Below, piece after piece: positions 31,761 through 56,983 of a DNA stretch of 64,000 nt (positions within the stretch are counted from its first letter, which is position 1; every line of letters starts with the position of its first letter). Source of the DNA: an uncultured Bacteroidota bacterium (GTDB lineage Bacteria; Bacteroidota; Bacteroidia; UKL13-3); the NCBI GenBank assembly GCA_903897855.1, contig CAIUDH010000041.1, positions 44,879 to 108,878 on the forward strand. The letters run 5' to 3'. Below the pieces are notes generated by a model, which ran no database searches, had not been told where the DNA came from, and was given only the letters and a program-made list of their open reading frames with translations. A program made the translations under genes and the position numbers.

Positions 31761-32109
31761 TGTATGAAATCAACAACAAGTATTAACCTCCTAAAAGCAT
31801 TACTAACAAAGAAACTTCACTTCCTATTTTTTCATTTATTTTCCTTTTGTTTCCTATAAAATGACTTATACTTGTTGCTAATTTGTCACACAAAGTATAA
31901 TTAGATAAGGACTAAATGTATTCTTTCAATTGAAACATAAGTCACAATAGTGTAGTATCGTTATCGTATATTTGCGTATCACACCGTATCACGTATCAGC
32001 AATTTGTTAGTTTCAACTCTTGCATTTTTTCGATTAAATTCAATCTAGCTGCTGCATTGTAAAAATAGTATGTTCAACTGCCGAGAAATACTCGGTAGTT
32101 GAAACCCTT

Positions 32110-33063
32110 TTACAACCGATTCAAATGCAATTGTATTCTTGCCATAATATCTTTAAACTCTGGTTGCCCATTATAATAAAGCTTGGAAGTGGATTCATAG
32201 CAATTTTGGAATGATTCTCTTATCTCCGAATCACTTAATAAAAGCGCAGGGTGTTCTCGAAGTGGTATTTGGTTGTCAGCTCCTTTGATTCTAGCTGCTT
32301 TATGTGCTAAATATTCAGGAGTTCCAATGAAAGCCTTTATATCAGAATTGCCAAGCAGGCAATAAACGTCATAATATTGGCGCATGAAGTTTTTATCATC
32401 AGAAGCTCCAGGATTATCTCTGTTGCTATATTTGCGAACTATTGTTTGAAGTTTTTCAATCAGGGTGTAACCTGGATGATAGCATTGTACGCCTGTTGCA
32501 GTATTGTTTATGTAATTGATGTGTGCTCCTATTGAAATAAGGTGTTCCCAAATCCAAGAAGAGATATCGATGGGGCTATTGGGTGTTACGGTGTCGAATC
32601 CAGCTTCTAATAAAATCAAATCTTTCAGCCCTTCCAACGTAGGGGTATAACTTTCATAGTAGAGTCTTATTCCTCCACTTCGAAATTTTTCTTTATCATC
32701 AAATTCATGGTCTCTAACAATTTCAATGATCCCATTTATCGAAAGCGATTTTGCAAACACATCATAAAATTCTTTTCGTGCCGTTTTTACTTGTGATTTG
32801 TCTTCTTTCCCTTCAATGAATAAGCCAAAATTTGTACGAATGTGAATGTCGATGTCCTCTTAAAATCTATGAATTAATCCATAGCCCTTGGATAATGACG
32901 TTCCTCCTTTCAATTCAAACTCAATTCCCTGTTGTTGCAATGAGTACAATGCATGCATGATCCAATAATCTTTCTCAACCAATGTAATATCAATGCCTTT
33001 CTTGGCAGATACAATGGAGAGAAGCTCTTTGAATTCAGGGTCGTTATGTATGAAATCAAGCAT
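32110..33063 (-). pseudogene. AbiEii-family nucleotidyltransferase toxin (type IV TA) interrupted by a single in-frame TAA
   Basis: The 67-aa ORF (33063-32860: EKDYWIMHALY...KGGTSLSKGYGLIHRF) and the 216-aa ORF (32760-32110) are in the same frame. They are separated only by a TAA at 32860-32862. Reading through gives ...LIHRF*EDIDIHIRTNFG..., where a conserved Ser normally sits. Confidence 0.75.
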
Positions 33064-33637
33064 GCTGGAGTACGTTTCTAACTATTGATTTTAAAGTGCG
33101 CTTTGTTTTGCCTGTTCCATATTGTTGAGTAGCCTTCATCAAAGCATCAGCATTAAAACTACGTACATTATTTGGCAATTTATCTAAGGCTTGTGTTTGG
33201 TCTTCTGCTAGGTTATCCAAATTGTTTAATAAATCAACGAGCAAATATTCTCTTGAGATATTTTTAGGGAAAGAGGATTTTAGTTTGAATTCGAATGTCT
33301 TTCCATTCAGTTGAAATTCGCCTTTGCGCTTATGGTTATATACCCATGTGGAATTGTAAAGTTGTGTTAGGCCTAGTCCTAATGAATTAAAACTATTTGG
33401 GGATACCAAAAGAAAATCTTCGTCCTTCAGAAAACTTTCTACTACTTGGCGGTCATCCGGAGGAACTGCCCCAAATTTTGATTGTTTAGGCGCGTAATAC
33501 AATCCTTGGTTTAATTTTACCAATGTTCCGTCTTTGGTTAATTGAACCAAATGCCTATCTATGGCCGTGGAATAATATTCCAGGTCAGAACGGCGATATA
33601 CCTCACCCTGCTTGATATGTTGACGGAGCAAATTCAT
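33056..33637 (-). CDS. AbiEi-family antitoxin / transcriptional regulator
   Basis: N-terminal MNLLRQHIKQGEVYRRSDLE...GTLVKLNQGLYYAP resembles the AbiEi_4 winged-helix domain. It overlaps the toxin start by 8 nt, the typical TA operon layout. Confidence 0.7.
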   Translation of the reverse strand: MNLLRQHIKQGEVYRRSDLEYYSTAIDRHLVQLTKDGTLVKLNQGLYYAPKQSKFGAVPPDDRQVVESFLKDEDFLLVSPNSFNSLGLGLTQLYNSTWVYNHKRKGEFQLNGKTFEFKLKSSFPKNISREYLLVDLLNNLDNLAEDQTQALDKLPNNVRSFNADALMKATQQYGTGKTKRTLKSIVRNVLQHA

Positions 33638-33667
33638 TTCTTTGATACAAAAGTACAGATATTTTTT

Positions 33668-33705
33668 GAATTGCATGCAAAAAACGGAAAAATTCATGCA
33701 AAAAC
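33668..33705. promoter_or_regulatory. Two direct copies of an AATT(G)CATGCAAAAAC box in the abiEi promoter region, containing the palindrome TGCATGCA; candidate autoregulatory operator
   Basis: GAATTGCATGCAAAAAAC (33668-33685) and AAATTCATGCAAAAAC (33690-33705), 30 to 70 nt upstream of the abiEi start. Confidence 0.3.
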
Positions 33706-33803
33706 TACCAATCCTCACCTATCTCATCCATTTTTGCTACCTGTTGCAGCATAGCTTCACCTTCTATAAAAGTTACCTAACCATTGGTTTAAAAACCCGT
33801 TTG

Positions 33804-36704
33804 CTAATATCCGAAATATCTGAATGCGGCCCAATAATAGGGTTGTTTGTAGGTTTCTCCGAATACACCAGCAATAAAATGTTGCCTGGTAATATGTAAA
33901 GCTTCAGAATAACTTTTCTTGTCGTTGAAAACCGACTTGTAAAAATCGGACATAAATATACCTGTTGCTTTATCATCTACTTTCCACCACGAAGCGATAA
34001 CCGCATTGGCTCCGGCTAAAAAAAAAGCCACCGGTAAATTATTTACTTCCTGTGACTGATCAGGAAGGCCCGCTGCTGTTTCACAGGCTGAAAGGCACAC
34101 CAATCCGGCATTAAGATGCAAGTTGGCTATTTCATTGAAGAGCAGAAACCCATCCTCTTTATTGCCTGCTTTCTCGGTTAATACCAAGGAGTTGTCACGA
34201 TAATTATTGAGTGAGACCATTCCATGAACAGCAAAATGCAAAATATCGTAATCCATGAGTTTATTAGAATCACTTAATTCTTTCAGTCGGCTTTCAGAAA
34301 GGCGATCTTCATCAAGGATCACTACTTCAGGCAGCAAATTTCTGATGGCCGACAATTCATTTTTTGTACCAGGCAAATCACCCCAGTTGGCGTATCCATC
34401 CTCTGCAAAATCATACCCCCGGCCTTTAGAGTTATGCGGATTAAACTTACTATAAGCGGCATTACCCAAGGCAAGCATCCTACCATGATTAGTTTTTGAT
34501 TTGGCCTTTAATAAATGAAACACGGTGAAAGAAGGCTCGTATACAATATTGTATAAACTTCCAAGATATTCTCCCTTTTCATTTTTTAAGGTCTCAAAGG
34601 GAATTAAGATGCTTCCGTAATCACCGGAGATGTAAATTGTTTTTTTGTTCTGCAGTATCTTTTCAAATGGTTTGATATAAATATAGTAAAGGATCTCATT
34701 AAATGCAGCCATTTCAGCTTTGGTATCCCGTTTCCTTTCCGGCTCTATGATACTTGCACCTCTAACATTGCCATGTTGCATCAGGTTGTTTAAGTTAGTC
34801 GCAATAATGAAAAGTAGCTTACTGCTTGTTTTGATTTCTTCTGTAGTTAAAATTTTCTCTACTTGTTGCATCGCCATATTTAGTTGGTTTGCCAGTGAAT
34901 CAATATTTAGCTCTTCATGATTCTTAAGTAATTTGTTCAACAGCGCGTGGTCTTCTTTTACGAGCATAACAGTATCATGACTTATAGCGAGGCCGAAAGC
35001 CAGTCCACTTAGACTCGACTTTGAAAATGTAATTGCCACTTCATCGCTTTTGAGTTCTGATGACAGTTTCTTAATACTGATAGTTTCGAGCGGACAGCAG
35101 GTTTTAGTTAGTTTAGGGAAAAATGCGTTGGCTCTCGATTCTTCCGTAAGTTTAAACAATTCGTCATTTTTTGTTTTCATTAATGCCATTTTTTCGAGTA
35201 GCGCAAACGCAGGATAAATGTCGGTTAAAGGCTTGTAAAGCAACTCGGAATTGTTTTTTACATAATTTAAATAATGTTCTATAGCCCGGTTGAGATAATA
35301 CTCAGCACTGTCTGTTTGCTTCAACCCATAGTATGACATTCCCGTAATTTCAAGCAAATTAGATATATCAATGTCAGCATAATTTTCGTAATTCGTAATA
35401 AACAATCTACTCATTGAGATGCATTCTTTATACTTTCCTATACTATTCAGAAACTGACAATAATTATAGTCGTCAAAAAACTCATCAACCGGCTGAGGGT
35501 GTTTCTCTGCATTTAATTTCTTACCTAGCCTATAATAATATTCAACAGAATCGAGCTCTTTCTTGTCACCAAAGATGACCATCAGTTTCCCTGTTGATAA
35601 GCTTTTTGCATCGGTAAGGCTACATTGGTTGGCAAGAATAAAAGAGCGTTTAAAATAAAAAAGTGCTGAGTCAGTTTCTGACAAATCAAGGTATTTATTA
35701 CCCATCGAATAATTAATAATAAACTGTTTGTCGAAATTATGAGCAAGCACTGCTAAATCTAAAGCTTGGCGCATTAAAAACATCCCTTCCTTTTCAGAAT
35801 TACCCAATTCATACAACACATCAATGATAAATGCGGTGTCGTTCAGATCTTTGGAAATAGAAAGCGCATTCATGAAATAATCATTGATAGCAATCGTTTT
35901 ACTACCCGTGTTATAATAAATCCATCCTAGGTCCCAGTAAAAGTCACGTAAAGTATAAAGCCGTAAACTTTGATTTTTTTGGTCTTCGACAATGAATTTT
36001 TCTTTCAATCTAATTATCACCTCATCGGTAGCCTCATAGTCGCCAGCAATGGTAAACTGATAGATAGAATCAAGAATTTCATTTCCGAATTTTTTATTTG
36101 AATATTGGTTATTCAAATAATCAGTAAAACTATATTTAAGTGTGCTCAATTTATACGGGTAATCTCCTTGCTGCTCAAAGAAGTTTAAATCGGCCATCAT
36201 ACTCTCTTCAAAAGCTTCGGCATTCGGAATATAATTCATTGCTCTATGAAAGTATTCCTGAAGTTTTCTCGGCTGCTTCAAATACGCATAGATATACCCC
36301 AGATTTAGATAGATAGAATAGTTGCAACTATTATATTTTAAGGCTTTAAGACAATATTTCTCGGCTCTGGCATATTTCTTATCTAATAACAAAAACCATC
36401 CTGTACTATTCCAATAATTCGCATTCTTTGGTGAGAGACGAATCAATCGATCGCCGTATTCAACCGCTACTCCATAATTTTTTAATTTGTAGTAATTATG
36501 AATTGAATATTCCAACGCCTTGATATTGTCAGGCTCTACAGCTAAAACCTTTTGAAGACCCACCAACGATGCTTCATAATGACCATTATTGAATGCTATA
36601 GTGGAATTCGACAACCATTGCTCAAGGCTGTCGGTTTGTGCTTTCGATAAATTCAATATGGACAACAACACAACGAGGAAAAGATACTTTTTGAAGATCA
36701 TCAT
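33804..36704 (-). CDS. Secreted TPR-repeat protein with a C-terminal CHAT (caspase-like) protease domain
   Basis: Signal peptide (LLSILNLSKAQ). Many TPR-like helices. C-terminal His/Cys dyad context LHFAVHGMV ... GLVCLSACETAAG, typical of CHAT. Confidence 0.8.
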   Translation of the reverse strand: MMIFKKYLFLVVLLSILNLSKAQTDSLEQWLSNSTIAFNNGHYEASLVGLQKVLAVEPDNIKALEYSIHNYYKLKNYGVAVEYGDRLIRLSPKNANYWNSTGWFLLLDKKYARAEKYCLKALKYNSCNYSIYLNLGYIYAYLKQPRKLQEYFHRAMNYIPNAEAFEESMMADLNFFEQQGDYPYKLSTLKYSFTDYLNNQYSNKKFGNEILDSIYQFTIAGDYEATDEVIIRLKEKFIVEDQKNQSLRLYTLRDFYWDLGWIYYNTGSKTIAINDYFMNALSISKDLNDTAFIIDVLYELGNSEKEGMFLMRQALDLAVLAHNFDKQFIINYSMGNKYLDLSETDSALFYFKRSFILANQCSLTDAKSLSTGKLMVIFGDKKELDSVEYYYRLGKKLNAEKHPQPVDEFFDDYNYCQFLNSIGKYKECISMSRLFITNYENYADIDISNLLEITGMSYYGLKQTDSAEYYLNRAIEHYLNYVKNNSELLYKPLTDIYPAFALLEKMALMKTKNDELFKLTEESRANAFFPKLTKTCCPLETISIKKLSSELKSDEVAITFSKSSLSGLAFGLAISHDTVMLVKEDHALLNKLLKNHEELNIDSLANQLNMAMQQVEKILTTEEIKTSSKLLFIIATNLNNLMQHGNVRGASIIEPERKRDTKAEMAAFNEILYYIYIKPFEKILQNKKTIYISGDYGSILIPFETLKNEKGEYLGSLYNIVYEPSFTVFHLLKAKSKTNHGRMLALGNAAYSKFNPHNSKGRGYDFAEDGYANWGDLPGTKNELSAIRNLLPEVVILDEDRLSESRLKELSDSNKLMDYDILHFAVHGMVSLNNYRDNSLVLTEKAGNKEDGFLLFNEIANLHLNAGLVCLSACETAAGLPDQSQEVNNLPVAFFLAGANAVIASWWKVDDKATGIFMSDFYKSVFNDKKSYSEALHITRQHFIAGVFGETYKQPYYWAAFRYFGY

Positions 36705-37286
36705 TGAAATTAGTTTTTAAAATAAACCCATACTTAAATTAAAATCAGACCATAACCTAAAAGCAAGTTATACTCTCAAAATCGTTCATTTTTTTTACTT
36801 CTAGAGAAAACAAAACCGACAGAAACTTTTATCAGTCGATCTTTAAAGAAATTATTTCATTTTTTGTTTCGGAAAATGGCCTTTGAATACATCGGCAAAC
36901 ATATGCCAAAAATGCAGAAAAAAAAATGAACGGTGCCATAAAACGAAAATATAGGTAGTAATTCTAGATAATTATTTCACCCTGAGAAGTTGATTGCATC
37001 CATCGAAATATTTATCTTGTAATATAACGACCAGAGGTGTCACTAAACCTCATAAAGTATAACAACGGTAGATGTTTATTATGATAGAAGTATCTTGCAA
37101 AATTAAAGGAGGTTCTTGAAAATTAATTTACACCACAAAACTGCCGATAGTTAGAATGCCAACAAATAAGTTATATTTGTCTCGAATCGATGGCATATCA
37201 TCATTTCGCTCGTGAATTTGAACAATCATTCAAAAAACGAGACGATACCGAAAGCCCATAAGAATAGAAATTTTAATACCTATAAA

Positions 37287-37793
37287 ATGAAGAATATTTT
37301 TTGTAAATCACCATTGTTAATTATCCTGATGGGAGTTTTGATTGGCTTTAACACAGCCTGTAAAAGTGATCCCGTTCAAACCCCAGAAGAAAAAGTAGAG
37401 GAAGCTCAGAATGCCTTTATAGCCTCGCTGGTATCAAACCCTCCAACCAAAGCCGACATCTCCGACCGAGTAAAAGTTTATTTGCTTAATAACACAAGCG
37501 ATTTTTTTGGTGCCACCGTTACGTTACTCGATAGCTTAAAAATAGCAACCTACAGTCCATATTGGTATCGGTCGGGCACTAATTTACTAATGACCGACCT
37601 GAACGCAGATACAGCCTATCATATCAATAATCAACCTTGGCTTCGTCAACCGATCGACGGAGGCGGTGCCATATGGACAGCCCCCTACTTTGATGCAGGC
37701 GGTGGCAATATCTGGATGAAAACACGATCGGTGCCGGTTTTTGTAAATGGAAAAATAATTGCCGTTGCAACCACCGATTTAGCCACTAAATAA
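37287..37793 (+). CDS. Hypothetical lipoprotein
   Basis: Signal peptide with lipobox (LIGFNTAC). No recognisable domain. The supplied ORF starts at 37212. Confidence 0.45.
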   Translation: MKNIFCKSPLLIILMGVLIGFNTACKSDPVQTPEEKVEEAQNAFIASLVSNPPTKADISDRVKVYLLNNTSDFFGATVTLLDSLKIATYSPYWYRSGTNLLMTDLNADTAYHINNQPWLRQPIDGGGAIWTAPYFDAGGGNIWMKTRSVPVFVNGKIIAVATTDLATK

Positions 37794-37919
37794 CGCTTGC
37801 CTCGAATCTTCATATTTTATTAGCATGCTCCATGACCGGGTTTGCATCGACGCCCCTCATGAACACTTCAATGCTTTAATGCGGAAGCTCGTGGATGCGA
37901 TATGAAATTAAGACCTTCC

Positions 37920-38264
37920 CTAATTTTGTGGTGCCCCTGAATCAATCCAGCATTTGATTTTTTTACGATCATCTAAAGAAAGAGTTCCGTTTTTAGGCAT
38001 ATCTTTCGTATACAAAACACGTTTAGATAGTGTGCCATTCTTAACCCTGATGAGAAGTCCTTCATAGGTGGAATAATTGCCATTCGGAGACCCTTCATGA
38101 TGACAGCCTGAACTGATGCAATGAGAATCAACAATCGACTTAATTGTGGCCATATAGGTAACAGGCATCAACGAACAATCAAGGTTCTTGTATTCATCCT
38201 TTTTGCAGCAGTTCAGGGTCATGAAAAACAAAACACAAAAAAACAAACCAAAAGTATTTTTCAA
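37920..38264 (-). CDS. Small lipoprotein with an HCISSGCHHEG motif
   Basis: Lipobox (MTLNCC). Cys-x4-Cys-His motif, not canonical CxxCH. Confidence 0.4.
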   Translation of the reverse strand: MKNTFGLFFCVLFFMTLNCCKKDEYKNLDCSLMPVTYMATIKSIVDSHCISSGCHHEGSPNGNYSTYEGLLIRVKNGTLSKRVLYTKDMPKNGTLSLDDRKKIKCWIDSGAPQN

Positions 38265-40024: not shown

Positions 40025-40810
40025 ATGAAAAAATTATTACTCCTTGCCCTTATTGCACTAACAAGTATATACAGCTACTCACAAACGGCCACCGACTTTA
40101 CGGCCCCTGATTGTGCGGGCAATTCACACAATTTATTTACCGAATTAAATGCCGGTAAAATAATTGTGTTGGTTTGGGTCATGCCTTGCGGTTCGTGCAT
40201 TGGCGATGCCAAAGCAGGCTATGATGCAGCCCAGAGTTTTGCAACCACCAATCCAGGTAAAGTGCTTTATTGGTTATCCGATGATTTCGGCAATAACTCC
40301 TGTGCCACTTTAACCTCATGGGCCAATACCAATGGAATTGTATCGACCAAAATCACGGTATTCGGAAATGTAGGTACCGCTATAGATGAGGCCAACTACG
40401 GGGGCTCGGCCATGCCACATGTGGTGGTTTTAGCTGGAGGAAATCATAAAGTATACTTAAACAAATTGGGTGGTAGTAACGATGGTCCTGCCATTATGCA
40501 AGCCATAAGTCAAGCAATTACCACGGGCATTTCACAAAATGACATCCCCGATAACACCATAAAATTATTCCCGAATCCGGCTCAAAACAAAATCACACTC
40601 CAATTCACAGAGGTGCCAACGTCCAAGTACATGATTGATATTTACAACTTGTTAGGAGAGAAAATCCAGACTGTCATCAAAGAAAATGAATTCACAAAAA
40701 GCAATCTGATAGAAATTAACTTAGCCGACAATTTACCCAACGGCACTTATGTATTAAAATTAAGCAGTGATGACCGATGCCGGAATCTAAAATTCACCAT
40801 TATTCAATAA
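40025..40810 (+). CDS. Thioredoxin-like (CGSC) secreted protein with a T9SS C-terminal sorting domain
   Basis: Signal peptide. VLVWVMPCGSCIGDAK CxxC motif. C-terminal LFPNPAQNKITLQF...GTYVLKLSSDD Por CTD. Confidence 0.6.
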   Translation: MKKLLLLALIALTSIYSYSQTATDFTAPDCAGNSHNLFTELNAGKIIVLVWVMPCGSCIGDAKAGYDAAQSFATTNPGKVLYWLSDDFGNNSCATLTSWANTNGIVSTKITVFGNVGTAIDEANYGGSAMPHVVVLAGGNHKVYLNKLGGSNDGPAIMQAISQAITTGISQNDIPDNTIKLFPNPAQNKITLQFTEVPTSKYMIDIYNLLGEKIQTVIKENEFTKSNLIEINLADNLPNGTYVLKLSSDDRCRNLKFTIIQ

Positions 40811-42169: not shown

Positions 42170-43489
42170 ATGAAAAAGTTATTCCTTTTACTATGCTTAT
42201 GCTTGGCCTCTCCCCTGCTCACCCAAGCACAAAGGCCAATTTTTACCAAACCCTTAGTAGGCACTGCTGCTCGATTCGAGGCCAAATTTAGTTCAGTTGA
42301 AACAACGCCTGAACAAACAGAGAGTTTACTTCAAATATACGACAGCGTGTTTAGTTGGCCTTGGGACAAGAACACCAGTCAGTGGAAAGTGAGCCCTGCA
42401 CAAAAATTTATTAATATTGTTTATAACGCGAACAAGAAAATGGTGAGCTATTTAGGTATCATTGGGGATGGCACGACCTATGTGAACGATGCAAAAACGA
42501 CCAATACCTATGACGCGAATAATAATCAGACCACTTCCATAGAGGAGTCCTGGATTGCAGGTGCTTGGACGAATTTGAATAAACTTATTTATACCTACGA
42601 TGCCAATAAAAATATGCTTACCTTCATCTCACAAAACTGGGTAAGTGCTGCTTGGGTTAATCTAGATAAAACAAGTTACACCTATGATGCCAATAATAAC
42701 CTGCTTATTGAATTATATCAAAGCTGGAATGGCACCTCTTGGGATAATCAGTTTAGAAGAAATTATCTCTATAATGCCAGTAATAAACGCATTCTGGAAA
42801 TTGCACAGCTTGGGGCAACCACCTGGGCAGATTACAGTAAAGACACTTTTATTTACGATAATAAAAATAATTTAATAACCGACCTCAATTTTTTCTGGGA
42901 TGGAACGGATTGGCTAGCTCAAGACAGATACTTGTTTACCTATGATGCCAACAATAATAAGATTACTGAATTAACTCAGAACTGGAATGGCACGGTATGG
43001 AGCGACATGTCGAAATATACGAGCACCTACGACGCCAATAAAAATTTACTGAGCGTGTTACAGCAAAGTTGGAACGGCACTCTTTGGCAAAATTACAACC
43101 TAAACAAGTCGACCTATGATGCCAATAACTTTATGAAAAGCACGTGTTATAAATACTATGATAATGCAGGCATCTCCATCCTATCGGGCGACAGCTTTTA
43201 CTACTACTTTCATACCGCAGTGAATGGAATAAACACCCCAACAAATGCATCTACGAGGTTCCATATTTACCCTAACCCAATGCTAACGATGTCGACCATT
43301 TATCTCGACAAGTCGATTAAAAATGGTCTTCTCACCGTGGTTGATATTGCAGGAAAGGAAATGCAATCCATCCGTTTTAGTGGCCAACGCGTAGACATCA
43401 AAAAGGAAGCAATGCCAGAAGGAATTTATTTTGTACGAATTCTTGATGAAAACAGCCAAATTGTAACAAGTAAAATGATCGTCAGATAA
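42170..43489 (+). CDS. T9SS-sorted secreted repeat protein (about 8 TYDANNN-type repeats of roughly 28 aa)
   Basis: Signal peptide. Repeated xYTYDAN(N/K)NxxxxxxQxWNGxxWxN units. C-terminal IYPNPM...GIYFVRILDENSQIVTSKMIVR Por CTD. Confidence 0.6.
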   Translation: MKKLFLLLCLCLASPLLTQAQRPIFTKPLVGTAARFEAKFSSVETTPEQTESLLQIYDSVFSWPWDKNTSQWKVSPAQKFINIVYNANKKMVSYLGIIGDGTTYVNDAKTTNTYDANNNQTTSIEESWIAGAWTNLNKLIYTYDANKNMLTFISQNWVSAAWVNLDKTSYTYDANNNLLIELYQSWNGTSWDNQFRRNYLYNASNKRILEIAQLGATTWADYSKDTFIYDNKNNLITDLNFFWDGTDWLAQDRYLFTYDANNNKITELTQNWNGTVWSDMSKYTSTYDANKNLLSVLQQSWNGTLWQNYNLNKSTYDANNFMKSTCYKYYDNAGISILSGDSFYYYFHTAVNGINTPTNASTRFHIYPNPMLTMSTIYLDKSIKNGLLTVVDIAGKEMQSIRFSGQRVDIKKEAMPEGIYFVRILDENSQIVTSKMIVR

Positions 43490-43565: not shown

Positions 43566-45557
43566 ATGAGCCAGCCCTTCGACCCGGAGTTGAATTACGA
43601 GTTAAGTAAAAAAGCCATTGGATATGTAACTAGAAAAGAGGCCACCCAAGCCGATTATGACCGAATCGGTTTTATGTCGGGTTTGGAAGTACACCAGCAG
43701 TTACTCACGATACGCAAACTTTTCTGTCGCTGTCCTGCCGGTAAATTCAATTCTCACGACGATTACGATGCTGAGATAGTTCGACATATGCGTCCTACCC
43801 TGAGTGAGCTGGGAGAGTATGATGGTACCGCCTTGATGGAGTTTAAAACGCGAAAGAACATCGTTTATCGTATCAAAAACGAAACTGCATGCACCTATGA
43901 AATCGACGATACCCCGCCCTTTCCTATCGACCCTGTAGCACTTCAGATTGCATTAGAAGTTTCTATTTTAAACAAGATGAATATTGTAGGTGAAGTGCAT
44001 ATCACCCGCAAACAATATCTCGATGGTAGTATTCCTGGAGGCTTTCAACGTACTGCCATCATTGGTGTAGGAGGCAAGATTCAATTACATCACAAAATCA
44101 TCAATCTCATCCAATTAAGTATTGAAGAAGATTCGAGTCGGGAAATTTCTGATGTGGGGCATCTCCGCGTTTATAAAACCGATCGACTTGGCATGCCGCT
44201 AATTGAAACGGTTACACAGCCTGAGTTTTTAAACCCTGATGAAGTAAAGGAAGGGGCCGATTATATTCGTTTCCTGAATCGAAGCACCGGAAAGGTAAGA
44301 ACCGGAATTGGTTCTACCCGAGCCGACGTGAATGTAAGTTGCCGTGGAGGCACACGGGTCGAAATTAAAGGGGTTGCTCATACCCGATGGATGCCCGATC
44401 TTACCCATAACGAATGCTTTCGTCAATGGGCCTTGGTGCATATCATTAAACTCTTGAATGAGAAAATAGGTGATGTTGCACAATGGGCCTTACGCACCGT
44501 AAAAATAAATCCTGAAGAGCACGATTTTAGCTACGAACCGCTACAAAAAGCGTGTGAAGAAAAACAGCCCATCATCGCCCTCTGCCTGCCCGGCTTCCAG
44601 GGAATCCTCTCCCATTTTACCCAACCGAAACAAACATTTGCCGATGAAATATCGACGCGACTGAAAGTGATTGCCTGTCTCGAAAAACCCAATATGATCC
44701 ATTCGGAAAATCTTCAACAGCTCCTCTCCGAATCAGAAATAAATAAGTTGAGTAAACTGCTCTCGTGCAAAACAGAGGATGCCTGGATACTTCTTTGGGG
44801 ACCCCAAGAAGATATGGCTACAGCGATAGAAACTGTTGAGGAGAGATGCAAGATGGCATTTCATTGCATTCCCAATGAGACCCGTAAATCGCTTCAGGAT
44901 GGTTGTACCACCATCTTCGAACGAGTGCTCCCTGGCGCCGATCGAATGTACCCGGATACGGACTCTGCCCCGATCCCATTCAAAAATGAGACGATCGAAG
45001 AAGTGAGAAAACAAATACCCATGGATGTATTCGATCGTATTCAGCAGCTGAAAGCCTGGGGCGTGCCCACGGATACCTTCACTTATATACTCAAAAAAAA
45101 TCTGGTGCCCCTCATCGAAAAAATGCATGATGAATTAAAAATTCATCCTCGTTTTTCAGGAACTTTTATGGGACATACCATCAAGTTTATCGAAAATAAT
45201 TATTCCCGATCCCCGGAATTTGAATACTCGAAAGTGTTCGAACTGTTTCAATTTCTTATTGACAAGCAACTGAATCTGAACCTCGCTGAAAAGATGTTCT
45301 TAGAATATTATCGGGCACCAAAACTAGATTTCAATGCCATCCTCCTCAACATTAATTTCAAAATCGTTTCCAAAAAAGAGATCGATAGCAAGATACCCTT
45401 GATGAAAGAAACATTTGACAGAATTCGAATTTCCAAAGCCATAAACTCAACTAGTCAATGGATTATGGGACAAGTAAAAGAAATGGCTTTAGGCAATATG
45501 AACCTGTCCGAACTAAAAGCTCAGATTGATGGGGAGGGTAATTCAAATCATAACTAA
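43566..45557 (+). CDS. gatE: GatE-like protein (archaeal-type Glu-tRNA(Gln) amidotransferase subunit E homolog)
   Basis: N-terminal GLEVHQQL...KLFCRCP matches the GatE signature (GatB has HVQL/HVEL and lacks the RCP context). A length of about 660 aa is consistent with the GatE insertion domain. It is followed 8 nt later by a GatD-like gene. The supplied ORF starts at 43527. Confidence 0.7.
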   Translation: MSQPFDPELNYELSKKAIGYVTRKEATQADYDRIGFMSGLEVHQQLLTIRKLFCRCPAGKFNSHDDYDAEIVRHMRPTLSELGEYDGTALMEFKTRKNIVYRIKNETACTYEIDDTPPFPIDPVALQIALEVSILNKMNIVGEVHITRKQYLDGSIPGGFQRTAIIGVGGKIQLHHKIINLIQLSIEEDSSREISDVGHLRVYKTDRLGMPLIETVTQPEFLNPDEVKEGADYIRFLNRSTGKVRTGIGSTRADVNVSCRGGTRVEIKGVAHTRWMPDLTHNECFRQWALVHIIKLLNEKIGDVAQWALRTVKINPEEHDFSYEPLQKACEEKQPIIALCLPGFQGILSHFTQPKQTFADEISTRLKVIACLEKPNMIHSENLQQLLSESEINKLSKLLSCKTEDAWILLWGPQEDMATAIETVEERCKMAFHCIPNETRKSLQDGCTTIFERVLPGADRMYPDTDSAPIPFKNETIEEVRKQIPMDVFDRIQQLKAWGVPTDTFTYILKKNLVPLIEKMHDELKIHPRFSGTFMGHTIKFIENNYSRSPEFEYSKVFELFQFLIDKQLNLNLAEKMFLEYYRAPKLDFNAILLNINFKIVSKKEIDSKIPLMKETFDRIRISKAINSTSQWIMGQVKEMALGNMNLSELKAQIDGEGNSNHN

Positions 45558-47188: not shown

Positions 47189-50100
47189 ATGAGCAATGCA
47201 ATAAAAAAAAATAAAAAAAGTCGTGAGGAAAAAATATTCACGAGAGTTACTAAAACGAGAGATTTTCCTATTGTGGGTATCGGTGCTTCTGCGGGAGGTT
47301 TGGAGGCATTAGAAAGTTTTTTTGGCGCCATGCCTAATGACCCTGGAATGGCTTTCGTAGTGATTCAGCATCTCGACCCCAATTATGTAGGGATGATGCC
47401 TGAGATTTTACAAAGAAGGACTAAAATGAAAGTTTTAGAGGCCACCGATGGCTTAGCCATAGAAACGAATCATGTGTATGTTATTCCTCCTAAGAAGACG
47501 ATGTCGATTCTGAATGCGGTTCTTTTTTTGTTTGAGCCCATCGAATCGCACGGCCTTCGTTTACCGATTGATTATTTTTTCAATTCATTGGCCAACGATA
47601 GGCTCGAAAATAGCATTGGCATTATTCTATCGGGCATGGGTAGCGATGGCTCTTTAGGCTCAAAAGCCATCAAAGCAAAAAACGGCATTCTCCTGGTGCA
47701 AGAGCCTGCTGATGCGAAATATGATAGCATGCCCCAAAGCGTGTTGAATCAATGTGTGGCCGACATTATAGCTCCAGCCATCGAATTGCCTGCAAAACTA
47801 ATTGCCTTTCTAAATCCGAGTGCCCTGGCCCCAGTACTCTCGACACAGAATATTGATAATTTAAGTTCCATCGACAAAATTATTATTTTGCTTCGTACCC
47901 ATAACAAGCACGATTTTTCAATGTATAAAAAGAACACCTTGTTCAGACGTATTGAAAGACGGATGAGTGTTCACCTGATTGAAGGAATAGATAATTATGT
48001 TCGATTTTTAACAGAGAATCCAACAGAGCTGGATATTCTTTTCAAAGAATTATTAATTGGAGTGACTAGTTTTTTTAGAGATCCCTTAGTTTGGGAAATG
48101 TTCATAAACACCATTCTCCCTGATTTATTTAAAATCCGCCCCAACGGACATGTTTTTCGAGCATGGATTCCAGCTTGTTCTACAGGTGAGGAAGCCTATT
48201 CATTGGCAATTGCTTTTAAAGAAGCATTAGAGAAAGAAAAAGACAGAAAGAATTTTAGCTTGCAGGTGTTTGGGACTGATATTGATAATGATGCCATTGC
48301 CAATGCCCGTAAAGCGGTTTTTAATTCCAATATTGCTTCGGATATTTCTCCAGAGCGTTTAAGCAATTTTTTCACCAAAACGTCAGGAGGTTTTCAAGTG
48401 AAGAGCAATATTCGGGAAATGGTGGTGTTTGCCCCTCAAAATGTTATACGCGACCCCCCATTCACCAGACTTGATATTGTCGCCTGCCGAAATATGCTTA
48501 TATATATGGAGCCGGTACTGCAGAAAAAAATCATGGCTTTGTTTCATTATAGTTTAAATGTTGATGGTATAATGCTATTAGGCAGTGCCGAGAGCAATAA
48601 CACCAATGATTTATATTTTAGTGTCATCGACTCAAAATTAAAATTCTACAAACGCTCCGAAACTTCTGCAATCGCTGAATTGGTTGATTTTCCCAGTGCT
48701 TACACCTATAAAAAAGCAGAATTGGTAGCAGAACTTAAAACTGAAAACAGTACTCCGAATATTCAATTGCTGGCTAATGAGTATATACAGCAAAACTATT
48801 CTCCTGCCAGTTTACTAATTAATGCCGATGGCGACATCCTCTTTATTTCTGGAAAAACAGGCAAATATTTAGAGCCGGCTGCAGGCAAAGCAAACTTGAA
48901 CATTTTTGCGATGGCTCGTGAGGGTTTAGGAACACCCCTTATAGGTGCCATCCGAAGAGCAAAGCAAAATTATGAACCGCAAATTTTGCATGGTGTGAAA
49001 GTGGGCCCACCAGACACTTCGAAATACGTTGATATCACTGTTCAACATATCGAAAAACCAGAAGCGATGAGAGGAAAACTCATGGTCGTTTTTAGCGAAT
49101 CTCATTTCTCGGTTAAATCGGAACGAAAACCAATAACCTCAAAAAACGCAACAGCTAATTTACGTGAGGAAGAATTAGAACACGAACTCTTGATGGCCAA
49201 TGAAGATCTTCAATGCGCGCGGGAAGAAATGCAGGCTACACAAGAAGAGTTAAAATCGACCAACGAGGAGTTGCAATCATCGAATGAGGAGATGCAGTCG
49301 ACCAACGAGGAACTAACGACCAGCAAAGAAGAAATGCAGAGTCTGAACGAAGAACTACAGACTATGAATACGGAGATGCAAAACAAATTAACCGAGTTCG
49401 TGCAGGCAAACAACGATATGAAAAACCTGCTGAACAGTACTGATATTGCCACTTTGTTTTTAGACAGAGACCTAAATATTCGACGCTATACTGATCAGAT
49501 AACGAAAATCATTAGACTTCGCCCTACCGATATAGGCAGGCCCTTTACCGACTTAATTTCAACACTGAGGTATCCGGAAATAGAAAAAGATGCAAGAAAG
49601 GTGTTACAAACGCTCATTTTTATAGAAACCTATATTGCCACCATTGACGAACGCTGGTTTGCCGTAAAAATCATGCCCTATCGTACCGTTGAAGACCGTA
49701 TTGATGGACTCGTTCTCACTTTTATTGACATTTCCAGTTCGAAAAAGATGGAAGGGAAATTATTGATTGCCAACAATGAACTATTGTTGCAGAATAAAGC
49801 AAAACTACAACGGGCCAATGAATTGGCAATTGCCAATAAAGAGCTTGCCTTTCAAAATAAGGAAAAACAAAAACGGGCCAATGAATTAATCATTGCCAAT
49901 AAAGAGCTTGCCTTTCAAAATAAGGAAAAACAAAAACGGGCCAACGAATTGGCAATGGCCAATAAAGAGCTTGCGGTACAAAACAAAGAAAAACAAAAAC
50001 GAGCCCTCGAATTGTCTGTTGCGTATAAAAAGCTTACGGTGCAAAACAATGAAAAGGCAGCACGTGAAAGCGCCTTGGTGATTGCTAATAAAGAACTTGC

Positions 50101-50305
50101 GTTACAAAACAAAGATAAACAAAAACGGGCCGACGAATTAATTATCGCCTATAAAGAACTTGCTTTACAGTATAAAGAAAAACAAAAACGAGCAGATGAA
50201 TTAATCATCGCCAACAAAAAGCTTTTAATTGATCAAAAAGCAAAGAAAAAAATCGAAGCCGAATTAGAAAAAACAAAAAATGCACTAAAGAAATTTAAAG
50301 TATAA
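47189..50305 (+). CDS. CheB methylesterase / CheR methyltransferase fusion protein with a PAS region and a C-terminal repetitive coiled coil
   Basis: N-terminal CheB-like VGIGASAGGLEALESFF...VIQHL. Central CheR-like FFRDPLVWEMF...RAWIPACSTGEEAYSLAIA. C-terminal 21-aa repeats ANKELAFQNKEKQKRANEL. Confidence 0.8.
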   Translation: MSNAIKKNKKSREEKIFTRVTKTRDFPIVGIGASAGGLEALESFFGAMPNDPGMAFVVIQHLDPNYVGMMPEILQRRTKMKVLEATDGLAIETNHVYVIPPKKTMSILNAVLFLFEPIESHGLRLPIDYFFNSLANDRLENSIGIILSGMGSDGSLGSKAIKAKNGILLVQEPADAKYDSMPQSVLNQCVADIIAPAIELPAKLIAFLNPSALAPVLSTQNIDNLSSIDKIIILLRTHNKHDFSMYKKNTLFRRIERRMSVHLIEGIDNYVRFLTENPTELDILFKELLIGVTSFFRDPLVWEMFINTILPDLFKIRPNGHVFRAWIPACSTGEEAYSLAIAFKEALEKEKDRKNFSLQVFGTDIDNDAIANARKAVFNSNIASDISPERLSNFFTKTSGGFQVKSNIREMVVFAPQNVIRDPPFTRLDIVACRNMLIYMEPVLQKKIMALFHYSLNVDGIMLLGSAESNNTNDLYFSVIDSKLKFYKRSETSAIAELVDFPSAYTYKKAELVAELKTENSTPNIQLLANEYIQQNYSPASLLINADGDILFISGKTGKYLEPAAGKANLNIFAMAREGLGTPLIGAIRRAKQNYEPQILHGVKVGPPDTSKYVDITVQHIEKPEAMRGKLMVVFSESHFSVKSERKPITSKNATANLREEELEHELLMANEDLQCAREEMQATQEELKSTNEELQSSNEEMQSTNEELTTSKEEMQSLNEELQTMNTEMQNKLTEFVQANNDMKNLLNSTDIATLFLDRDLNIRRYTDQITKIIRLRPTDIGRPFTDLISTLRYPEIEKDARKVLQTLIFIETYIATIDERWFAVKIMPYRTVEDRIDGLVLTFIDISSSKKMEGKLLIANNELLLQNKAKLQRANELAIANKELAFQNKEKQKRANELIIANKELAFQNKEKQKRANELAMANKELAVQNKEKQKRALELSVAYKKLTVQNNEKAARESALVIANKELALQNKDKQKRADELIIAYKELALQYKEKQKRADELIIANKKLLIDQKAKKKIEAELEKTKNALKKFKV
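49813..50220 (+). repeat. About 6.5 tandem copies of a 63-bp coding repeat within the CheB/CheR fusion gene
   Basis: GCCAATGAATTGGCAATTGCCAATAAAGAGCTTGCCTTTCAAAATAAGGAAAAACAAAAACGG is repeated near-identically and degenerates toward the 3' end. Confidence 0.7.
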
Positions 50306-55183: not shown

Positions 55184-56983
55184 ATGGTTTTAAAATCAGA
55201 ACATATCTTTCATATACCGGTAATGGGACTTGCATATACGGTTGATTCACCAGTGAAAGTAGCTCGTTTTGGGATCTCATCAGTAATCTCCATCATAGAA
55301 GATCGTTTAGTGGAGATGATGCGTAAGCACTACTATCCCACCATCAACGAAACCTATACTCCTATATCGCACCACGAACCCGATTACAGAGCAAAAAGAA
55401 TCACCGATTATCTAAACCTGGTGAACACGATCGTACAGCAACAAATGCAAAAATTAAAAACAGAAGCATTTGAACGTGGTACCGAAATAGTGAAGTATTT
55501 TGAGATGTTACCGGTGGAGAGCAGATTGAAGAAACTGTATCTGGAGATGATGCATTGTGCTGATGAGGTAGAGAAGATAGGCCTGCAAGTATACCTACGC
55601 ACACAACTTGTTGCTGGAGGTATCGATGTAAATATACTCACGAAAACAGATCGGGAAAATCGTGATGACGATGGAAATATCATTCCGAACGGATCGGACG
55701 CCGTGGCCGCCTTGCGTGGTTATATTAAAAGCGATTTAACCAACTCCGCTATTGTGTTTTCGGCTGGCATGAACCCTCGATTATATAGCTATCTGGAAAA
55801 TTTCGATGCCTTCGATCCAGATGAAAATTTCCTCTTGAAGAAACGAGTGATTGTGAAAGTAAGCGACTACCGTTCGGCCCTAATTCAAGGCAAGTTTTTA
55901 GCTAAAAAAGGAATTTGGGTAAGCGAGTTTCGGATCGAATCGGGACTCAACTGTGGAGGCCATGCTTTTGCCACCGATGGGTTTCTTTTAGGTCCTATTA
56001 TGGAGGAGTTTAAAAACAATAGAGAGGTGTTGGCCAACACCATATTTGATATTTACAAATTAGCCATTCACAAAAAAACCGGACTAGATTTTAATCATCA
56101 TCCAGGAATTGAAATTTCGGTGCAAGGAGGTATTGGAACTTACGAAGAAGATCGTTTTTTACATGAACACTATAACGTTACAAGCACCGGTTGGGGTACC
56201 CCTTTTTTATTGGTGCCCGAAGCAACTACGGTAGATGATCATACCTTAAAACTTTTAAGCGATGCCACAGAGGAAGACATATTGCTTAGCAATTACTCAC
56301 CACTCGGCGTTCGTTTTCATTATTTGAAAGGAACCACCGCAGCCATTGAAAAACAAGAGAGAATAGATGAAGGTAAACCTGGTAGCCCCTGCACTGAAAA
56401 GCATCTTGGCTTTAATACCGAATTTACTGAAGAACCTATCTGCACTGCTTCTCATAAATATCAGAAATTAAAACTAGAGCAATTACAAACCCTTGGCCTG
56501 TCTGAGAAAGATTATCAATCGCAAAAAGCAGATGTATTAGCCAAAGAATGCTTATGTATTGGTCTTAGCAATGCGGCTGCCTTATATTATAATGAGCCCT
56601 TTTTGAAAAGTTTGAAATCGGTGAATGTCTGCCCTGGTCCCAATATCGTAAACTTTTCAGAAGTAGTTTCATTACAAACCATGGTGGATCATATTTATGG
56701 CAGAACCGATATTATGACAAATCCAAAGCGCCCTCATATGTTTAATGCAGAAATAACACTGTATATTAACTATATCAAGGAGCTGCTGTTAAAGGAGGGT
56801 GGAATAAACGACCCTAAAAGAAAAAGCTATTACCAATCGTTTATCTCCAATTTGTTGGAAGCCATCGTTTACTATAAAAACTTACCCGCACATGCGATAG
56901 CAGCCCGATCTGTTTTTATGGAAGAGTTAGAGCGTGCTGAAAAAGAATTGGCCGCCGTGAGAATAGCCTATGCTTTAGATTAA
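55184..56983 (+). CDS. Conserved hypothetical protein (599 aa), possibly an FMN-binding TIM-barrel-like enzyme, co-oriented 11 nt after nadB
   Basis: No confident family assignment. The motifs ESGLNCGGHAF and VQGGIGT are reminiscent of nitronate monooxygenase or glutamate-synthase-type FMN barrels. Inference only. Confidence 0.5.
   Translation: MVLKSEHIFHIPVMGLAYTVDSPVKVARFGISSVISIIEDRLVEMMRKHYYPTINETYTPISHHEPDYRAKRITDYLNLVNTIVQQQMQKLKTEAFERGTEIVKYFEMLPVESRLKKLYLEMMHCADEVEKIGLQVYLRTQLVAGGIDVNILTKTDRENRDDDGNIIPNGSDAVAALRGYIKSDLTNSAIVFSAGMNPRLYSYLENFDAFDPDENFLLKKRVIVKVSDYRSALIQGKFLAKKGIWVSEFRIESGLNCGGHAFATDGFLLGPIMEEFKNNREVLANTIFDIYKLAIHKKTGLDFNHHPGIEISVQGGIGTYEEDRFLHEHYNVTSTGWGTPFLLVPEATTVDDHTLKLLSDATEEDILLSNYSPLGVRFHYLKGTTAAIEKQERIDEGKPGSPCTEKHLGFNTEFTEEPICTASHKYQKLKLEQLQTLGLSEKDYQSQKADVLAKECLCIGLSNAAALYYNEPFLKSLKSVNVCPGPNIVNFSEVVSLQTMVDHIYGRTDIMTNPKRPHMFNAEITLYINYIKELLLKEGGINDPKRKSYYQSFISNLLEAIVYYKNLPAHAIAARSVFMEELERAEKELAAVRIAYALD

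Follow-up and report, generated by a model that had tools for sequence, protein, structure and literature searches.

A predicted periplasmic TPR-CHAT protease-like protein beside a partly decayed AbiE module in an uncultured Bacteroidota bacterium

CHAT proteases have gained prominence for their role as executioners in the cytoplasm, in CRISPR type III-E, CBASS-like (cyclic oligonucleotide-based antiphage signaling), and gasdermin systems. The gene considered here encodes a 966-amino-acid (aa) protein with tetratricopeptide repeats (TPRs) and a C-terminal CHAT domain. It lies in a 64,000-nt stretch of DNA, called the window below (positions 44,879 to 108,878 of contig CAIUDH010000041.1, assembly GCA_903897855.1), from an uncultured Bacteroidota bacterium of the lineage UKL13-3. 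By its sequence, the product is a further member of the known CHAT/TPR-CHAT family, in the common exported form. The reading we favor, and hold to be fairly probable, is that it is a stand-alone, soluble periplasmic protease, Sec-exported and TPR-gated, which would cut one or a few envelope proteins specifically.

Among characterized CHAT proteins that are exported, periplasmic, or from Bacteroidetes, full-text literature searches found only DdvA, an anti-sigma factor of Myxococcus. It combines an N-terminal cytoplasmic zinc-binding anti-sigma domain, a transmembrane helix, and an extracytoplasmic TPR-CHAT module, pairs with the extracytoplasmic function (ECF) sigma factor DdvS, and controls a CBASS/CRISPR island. 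Its TPR-CHAT domain is periplasmic and in a resting conformation; the proposal is that the domain cleaves itself upon an unknown signal, at which regulated intramembrane proteolysis starts (PMC11506125). The window protein matches the TPR-CHAT module of DdvA, with its own localization here predicted, but has just a 22-residue signal peptide where DdvA has the anti-sigma domain and transmembrane helix. It has no sigma or anti-sigma neighbor, belongs to another phylum, and shares ~12% identity with DdvA. Even at E ≤ 1 it gave no Pfam match to zf-HC2 or an anti-sigma domain, and no Sigma70_r2/r4 gene lies within ~10 kb on either side of its gene.

Two further TPR-CHAT or CHAT-type systems are among the closest known. 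Csx29, of Craspase in type III-E CRISPR-Cas (PDB 7Y83, 7Y9X, 8EEX), is cytoplasmic and about 650-750 aa long, whereas the window protein has a signal peptide; Csx29 is bound to gRAMP/Cas7-11 and, once activated by target RNA, cleaves Csx30, whereas the window contains no cas genes and the locus no CRISPR context. The Csx29-type PADLOC model is not matched by the window protein. Separase, a eukaryotic CHAT-type protease (PDB 5U1T, 5FC2, 7NJ0), is nuclear or cytoplasmic and much larger, and its similarity to the window protein is marginal (E about 0.01). Craspase and separase have a three-helix active-site motif, which DdvA lacks.

The gene and the parts of its product are as follows:

33804-36704, minus strand: complete TPR-CHAT gene, 966 aa plus stop, from the list of open reading frames (ORFs) and its translation; ATG start, stop codon at 33804-33806
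36639-36704, minus strand: predicted Sec / signal peptidase I signal peptide, residues 1-22, MMIFKKYLFLVVLLSILNLSKA, by inspection and heuristic; cleavage predicted before Q23
35106-36629, minus strand: TPR-like alpha-solenoid, residues 26-533, ~26 helices in 13 hairpins
34725-35105, minus strand: beta/helical region between solenoid and CHAT domain, residues 534-660, from the secondary structure and per-residue confidence (predicted local distance difference test, pLDDT) of the AlphaFold2 model
33807-34724, minus strand: CHAT protease domain (caspase-like, clan CD), residues 661-966
34224-34226, minus strand: codon of the predicted catalytic His827 (HG of HFAVHG), from conservation and alignment to DdvA
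34083-34085, minus strand: codon of the predicted catalytic Cys874 (LSACE), from conservation and alignment to DdvA
34761-34763, minus strand: codon of R648, in the loop before the CHAT domain, from the family alignment
35142-35144, minus strand: codon of E521, from the family alignment

The first-pass annotation of this DNA had proposed a 966-aa ORF on this stretch, with a signal peptide, TPRs, and a C-terminal CHAT domain carrying a His/Cys dyad (HFAVHG ... LSACETAAG), and in these respects it is borne out: the ORF has exactly those coordinates on the minus strand, the order signal peptide, TPR, CHAT holds (the N-terminus as judged by inspection and heuristic), and both motifs are present, at residues 823-828 and 871-879, with the dyad kept in an alignment of relatives. 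A Pfam search was positive for both kinds of domain. CHAT (PF12770) matches residues 672-965 with E = 1.5e-51 and 176 bits against a cutoff of 24, spanning profile positions 7-288 of 289. TPR matches fall at about residues 26-190 and 414-478; TPR_2 scores 42.4 bits against a cutoff of 27 and TPR_17 27.9 bits against 24.4, so that both pass, and other TPR models are just below their cutoffs. An NCBIfam scan of the protein gave sub-threshold TPR matches only, and Rfam and tRNA scans gave no match within or near the locus. A protein identical to the product (P0001) occurs in public metagenome-assembled genome (MAG) assemblies, and a cluster member with at least 90% identity is labeled Bacteroidota bacterium.

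AlphaFold2, run on the family alignment, gave a model with a mean pLDDT of 87 and a predicted template modeling score (pTM) of 0.77. In it, residues 26-533 form a continuous helical solenoid, 534-660 a small region of strands and helices, and 661-966 an alpha/beta CHAT domain with the caspase-hemoglobinase alpha/beta fold that defines CHAT proteins. The only poorly modeled loops are 613-619 and 645-658, the second of which holds R648. The best Foldseek matches of the model are DdvA, Csx29, and separase, with DdvA first. At the sequence level, a search of the PDB with the whole protein was swamped by TPR matches, and a CHAT-only family profile was used instead; this returned DdvA at E = 7.9e-8, the Craspase TPR-CHAT protein at ~4e-5, and fungal separase at ~0.01.

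How many full-length relatives are found depends on the search. A word-indexed protein search gave two, at 47% identity, and a second one with the family alignment added no further full-length members; an exhaustive search of cluster representatives gave ~25, at 23-47% identity over the whole length, and 459 proteins at E ≤ 1e-30, a number that grows greatly once the threshold is relaxed and similarity in the TPRs alone is also admitted. A scan of contigs for the LSACE pattern had, among the matches listed, one full-length relative (L006, a Chitinophagales MAG), the others being CHAT-only. Relatives come from Bacteroidota, Acidobacteriota (Pyrinomonadaceae, Blastocatellia), Planctomycetota, cyanobacteria, and others, and the class is generically annotated as “CHAT domain-containing protein.”

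Five positions in the CHAT domain (H823, H827, D851, G852, C874) are invariant in the 24-sequence full-length family, as are four outside the Pfam CHAT domain (R248, D289, E521, R648). For a wider view, ~260 retrieved relatives were aligned to the family hidden Markov model, and non-family relatives covering each column were counted. Position 827 is His in 231/231 of these and position 874 Cys in 232/232; among the TPR-CHAT relatives, position 521 is Glu in 140/146, and position 648 is Arg in 133 of ~145, usually followed by Gly or Ser. E521 and R648, which are upstream of the Pfam domain, are by these alignments class-wide features, and R648, in its low-confidence loop (645-658) just ahead of the CHAT domain, may be where the protein processes itself or may act as a pseudosubstrate. 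H827 and C874 align with H862 and C907, the catalytic dyad of DdvA (PMC11506125). The invariance of the dyad thus indicates constraint of the kind expected of a working active site, and it bears on whether the protein is instead a non-catalytic TPR scaffold, with the CHAT domain as a binding module only. The activity of exported CHAT proteins is a predicted one, and in DdvA the dyad is resting and misaligned in the structure, its mutation having no phenotype in unperturbed cells (PMC11506125). A mere scaffold is nevertheless highly improbable, since no member of the aligned family departs from His827, Cys874, or the DG motif, and every other relative counted keeps the dyad.

In the N-terminus, MMIFKKYLFLVVLLSILNLSKA and then QTD (…LNLSKA before the predicted cut, QTD after it), a basic n-region leads into a hydrophobic core of 13 residues; around the predicted cut, Ser occupies -3, Ala -1, and Gln +1. 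On inspection its n-h-c layout (KK, then YLFLVVLLSILNL, then SKA with Q beyond the cut) conforms to the Q-rule of Bacteroidota signal peptidase I substrates, which have Gln at +1 (PMC5837995). Signal peptides were scored by a hydrophobicity/charge heuristic together with inspection, not by a trained predictor. The heuristic calls the TPR-CHAT protein positive; as controls within the window, it rejected IF2, NusA, MnmE, RpoB, and GatB and accepted type IX secretion system (T9SS) cargo and lipoproteins, and on this showing the proposed Sec-type N-terminus is supported. A hydrophobic core and then Gln are found at the N-terminus of 23/24 full-length family members, the exception looking N-terminally truncated. 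Among relatives of at least 700 aa, signal-peptide-like N-termini were counted in 90/104 from the first search and 112/127 from the exhaustive one, and many of the negatives look truncated or mis-started. Export is not special to this protein, because about 87% of the relatives retrieved have N-termini that suggest it; judged from these, it is a trait of the TPR-CHAT class.

As to where the exported protein would go, its first Cys is residue 118, none being found in the first 117, and there is therefore no lipobox. No T9SS C-terminal sorting domain (Por_Secre_tail or a type B one) is matched in it, Por_Secre_tail not even at E ≤ 1, and the CHAT domain reaches residue 965 of 966, leaving no room for one. 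A periplasmic (extracytoplasmic) location is plausible from the N-terminus, while a surface or secreted one is disfavored by the lack of both a sorting domain and a lipobox; of the “periplasmic or surface” effector first suggested, then, the periplasmic half stands as plausible and the surface half does not. The same observations apply to a secreted or surface degradative protease serving nutrition or attack on other cells. The models for this would be the gingipains RgpB and Kgp of Porphyromonas, clan CD enzymes with a T9SS C-terminal domain, a prodomain, and Ig-like (immunoglobulin-like) domains that act as broad virulence proteases. The window protein, in contrast, has no such C-terminal domain and has a long TPR domain, and large TPR regulatory domains typify specific, gated proteases (separase, Craspase) rather than bulk ones. 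We consider a degradative role quite unlikely.

For a stand-alone periplasmic protease, the following sequence of events can be proposed. After translocation through Sec, signal peptidase I would cleave the precursor behind Ala22, so that Gln23, probably cyclized to pyroglutamate as in most Bacteroidota substrates of this peptidase, would become the first residue of a mature protein soluble in the periplasm. By analogy with separase, Craspase Csx29, and DdvA, the TPR superhelix may bind a protein or peptide ligand, holding the caspase-like site at rest until ligand or substrate binds; the enzyme would then cut one or a few envelope proteins specifically, with no bulk degradation. This kind of single-substrate regulatory mode is illustrated by HetF of Anabaena, a CHAT protease of bacterial origin for which cleavage of a specific substrate, PatU3, has been demonstrated (PMC9457339). 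HetF differs in being cyanobacterial, in its architecture, and in its role in heterocyst differentiation and cell division.

The gene is followed on the same strand by an AbiE module, the abiEi start codon being at 33637, 166 nt past the CHAT stop codon:

33638-33803, minus strand: CHAT-abiEi intergenic gap, 166 nt
33056-33637, minus strand: abiEi antitoxin gene, intact (ATG 33637, stop 33056; PADLOC AbiEi model, E = 4e-81)
32110-33063, minus strand: abiEii toxin gene, one reading frame with an in-frame TAA at 32860-32862

The adjacency to an Abi-type toxin-antitoxin module that was reported at first pass is thus real. The toxin gene, however, is broken into two ORFs, one of 67 aa and one of 216 aa, by the single in-frame TAA, which takes the place of Ser in the nucleotidyltransferase motif GGTSLSKGYGLIHRF[S]EDIDI (GGT…RF[S]EDID) and truncates AbiEii before the catalytic aspartates. 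The same stop is found in an independent same-species assembly (L090, 99.7% DNA identity), and is therefore not an assembly error; by this comparison abiEii is a real, fixed toxin pseudogene, a read-through site being less likely. Within the gap, TAnnTTTG occurs at 33655, 18 nt ahead of the abiEi ATG, and corresponds to the Bacteroidetes -7 promoter consensus, although with three matches in 3.7 kb the motif occurs at about chance expectation. Two direct TTTTTGCATG repeats (TTTTTGCATG(A/C)AATT), 21 nt apart, are at 33695-33704 and 33674-33683; their 10-mer has one further occurrence in the whole window. From their positions and sequences, these elements look like an autoregulated AbiE promoter and AbiEi operator.

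The first-pass annotation tied the CHAT protein functionally to this module, in defense or programmed death. Such an effector, working in abortive infection with the adjacent AbiE, would gain from the short same-strand spacing, from the action of CHAT proteases in CRISPR type III-E and other defense systems, and from the lower GC content (0.36-0.37) of the 32-38 kb stretch than of its flanks. It is nonetheless very unlikely. The PADLOC AbiE models match only the two downstream genes and not the TPR-CHAT protein, for which PADLOC gives no defense model beyond a weak generic TPR match (E = 0.0015); AbiE is a self-contained two-gene system, here with promoter- and operator-like elements of its own; the toxin is interrupted within its nucleotidyltransferase motif; and an exported protease and a cytoplasmic toxin would be in different compartments. 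The CHAT-AbiE arrangement recurs only in same-species assemblies (99.7% DNA identity). Seven more distant full-length family lineages have no AbiE, no recognizable defense gene, and no common neighbor, their neighbors being mostly housekeeping genes:

L001, L003-5: pyridoxal decarboxylase, hypothetical protein, beta-lactamase-family protein
L087: PAS histidine kinase, papain-like peptidase
L089: SecDF
L006: histidine kinase, LuxR-type response regulator, DUF6498 protein, ATPase
L094: DAP (diaminopimelate) epimerase
L095: RuvB, ParAB

Because these lineages lack AbiE, no defense model matches the protein, the module has its own promoter- and operator-like elements, and its toxin is broken, the adjacency looks coincidental, and AbiE looks like an independent, partly decayed neighbor. 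Nor did the comparative search turn up a conserved partner gene: none is common to the seven lineages, and the upstream genes of L001 and L094, with products of 303 and 289 aa, share no homology. The first-pass annotation had named, as grounds for refutation, homologs that never lie near defense genes; by that measure, and as far as the survey reaches, the defense interpretation fails, and the proposed functional tie is not supported.

Distant TPR-CHAT relatives were surveyed through crude ORF calls in 80 loci (L006-L085), from which 57 upstream and 63 downstream immediate neighbors were scanned against Pfam and PADLOC. No family dominates among these 120 flanks. The commonest recurring neighbors are TPR/CHAT paralogs, some in tandem; zf-HC2 anti-sigma proteins were found 6 times, DUF4384 and DUF928 3 times each, all as raw counts. 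PADLOC matches among the upstream neighbors are generic only (TPR, cyclase-like, and one caspase). The zf-HC2 neighbors hint at a link of some exported TPR-CHAT proteins to ECF-sigma signaling, as in DdvA. One alternative to the reading favored here is a DdvA-like envelope signaling protease acting in trans, whose TPRs would sense an extracytoplasmic cue and which would make a site-1-type cut in a membrane-bound regulator, either an anti-sigma factor or a sensor kinase, whose gene lies at another locus; the regulon thereby turned on might be one of defense. The periplasmic TPR-CHAT domain of DdvA is the best match of the window protein both by profile (E = 7.9e-8) and by Foldseek, and self-cleavage leading to regulated intramembrane proteolysis is what has been proposed for it (PMC11506125). 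Besides the anti-sigma proteins at 6/120 flanks, two loci of the family, L087 and L006, have histidine kinases adjacent to the gene or close by. These kinase and anti-sigma neighbors, as raw counts, are a small minority, however; the window protein itself has neither anti-sigma domain nor transmembrane helix, and its gene has no ECF sigma or anti-sigma gene within ~10 kb. The protease activity and trigger of DdvA are themselves still unproven (PMC11506125). We judge signaling of this kind unlikely here. Overall, the protein is not assigned to Craspase, to the DdvA anti-sigma factors, to AbiE, or to T9SS cargo, since the defining feature of each was tested for and is absent.

Several considerations count against the stand-alone, TPR-gated periplasmic protease as well. 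Its structure is a prediction, and the gating is extrapolated from distant relatives, at about 12% identity. The signal peptide is judged by inspection and a home-made heuristic, and could in principle be an uncleaved signal anchor, against which the 13-residue hydrophobic core argues. A thiol protease in an oxidizing compartment needs explanation; the gingipains are clan CD enzymes able to work outside the cytoplasm. Protease activity, substrate, and localization are predicted only, throughout the full-length family. Finally, the neighborhood survey consists of seven lineages of the close family and, for ~60 distant relatives, of the immediate neighbors that crude ORF calling yields.

On its other side, upstream, the TPR-CHAT gene is separated by a 0.5-kb gap from a divergent gene for a small lipoprotein-like protein (37212-37793, plus strand; probable start ATG 37287, MKNIFCKS). 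Its product, of ~154-193 aa, has a lipoprotein-like signal (…GFNTAC) and a stand-alone PDC_1 sensor domain like that of methyl-accepting chemotaxis proteins (E = 8.6e-19), with no transmembrane or output domain. Beyond it are small lipoproteins, an Lcl_C protein, and T9SS cargo, a C-terminal sorting domain being present in the neighboring genes at 40025-40810 and 42170-43489; the run of lipoprotein and T9SS genes described for this flank is thus there, as predicted lipoproteins and Por_Secre_tail proteins. The remaining window is ordinary chromosome, with rpoB, infB-nusA-rimP, mnmE, gatB, a TonB-dependent receptor, and others. The core genes on either side (infB-nusA-rimP, mnmE, and gatB) have a GC content of 0.40-0.43, which falls to 0.36-0.37 over 32001-38000, a stretch that takes in AbiE, the CHAT gene, and intergenic sequence, as would fit an accessory islet set among core genes.

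Two further genes in the window deserve mention. At 47189-50305 (plus strand) is a 1038-aa fusion of a CheB methylesterase, a CheR methyltransferase, and PAS, in a region with no obvious chemoreceptor genes. At 55184-56983 (plus strand) is a 599-aa protein with no Pfam domain that is 63% identical to the product of 20966-22771 in L001. The L001 gene is ~8 kb from the CHAT ortholog there, and its homolog in the window ~20 kb from the CHAT gene. It is the one of 15 L001 neighbors with a homolog in the window, and the pair suggests loose regional synteny between the window genome and L001.

The TPR-CHAT protein is not to be counted as a new defense system. With no conserved partner and a broken AbiE toxin beside it, the locus itself adds no special functional clue; it is the exported TPR-CHAT class that deserves study. 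Relatives of the protein are overwhelmingly predicted to be exported, and DdvA is the sole extracytoplasmic TPR-CHAT protein studied. A broader conjecture, which we regard as doubtful, is that stand-alone exported TPR-CHAT proteins are a widespread, unrecognized class of ligand-gated periplasmic caspase-like proteases that sense extracytoplasmic cues and cleave membrane-bound regulators in trans. If that were true, cues such as phage, competitors, or envelope damage would be sensed through the TPR solenoid, the mechanism proposed for DdvA would generalize to soluble enzymes of Bacteroidota, Acidobacteriota, and Planctomycetota, and the Arg648 loop could be the site of autoprocessing or the pseudosubstrate. 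The protein described here, encoded by a single gene, with its dyad intact and its structure confidently modeled, could serve as a clean test case for periplasmic caspase-like proteases.

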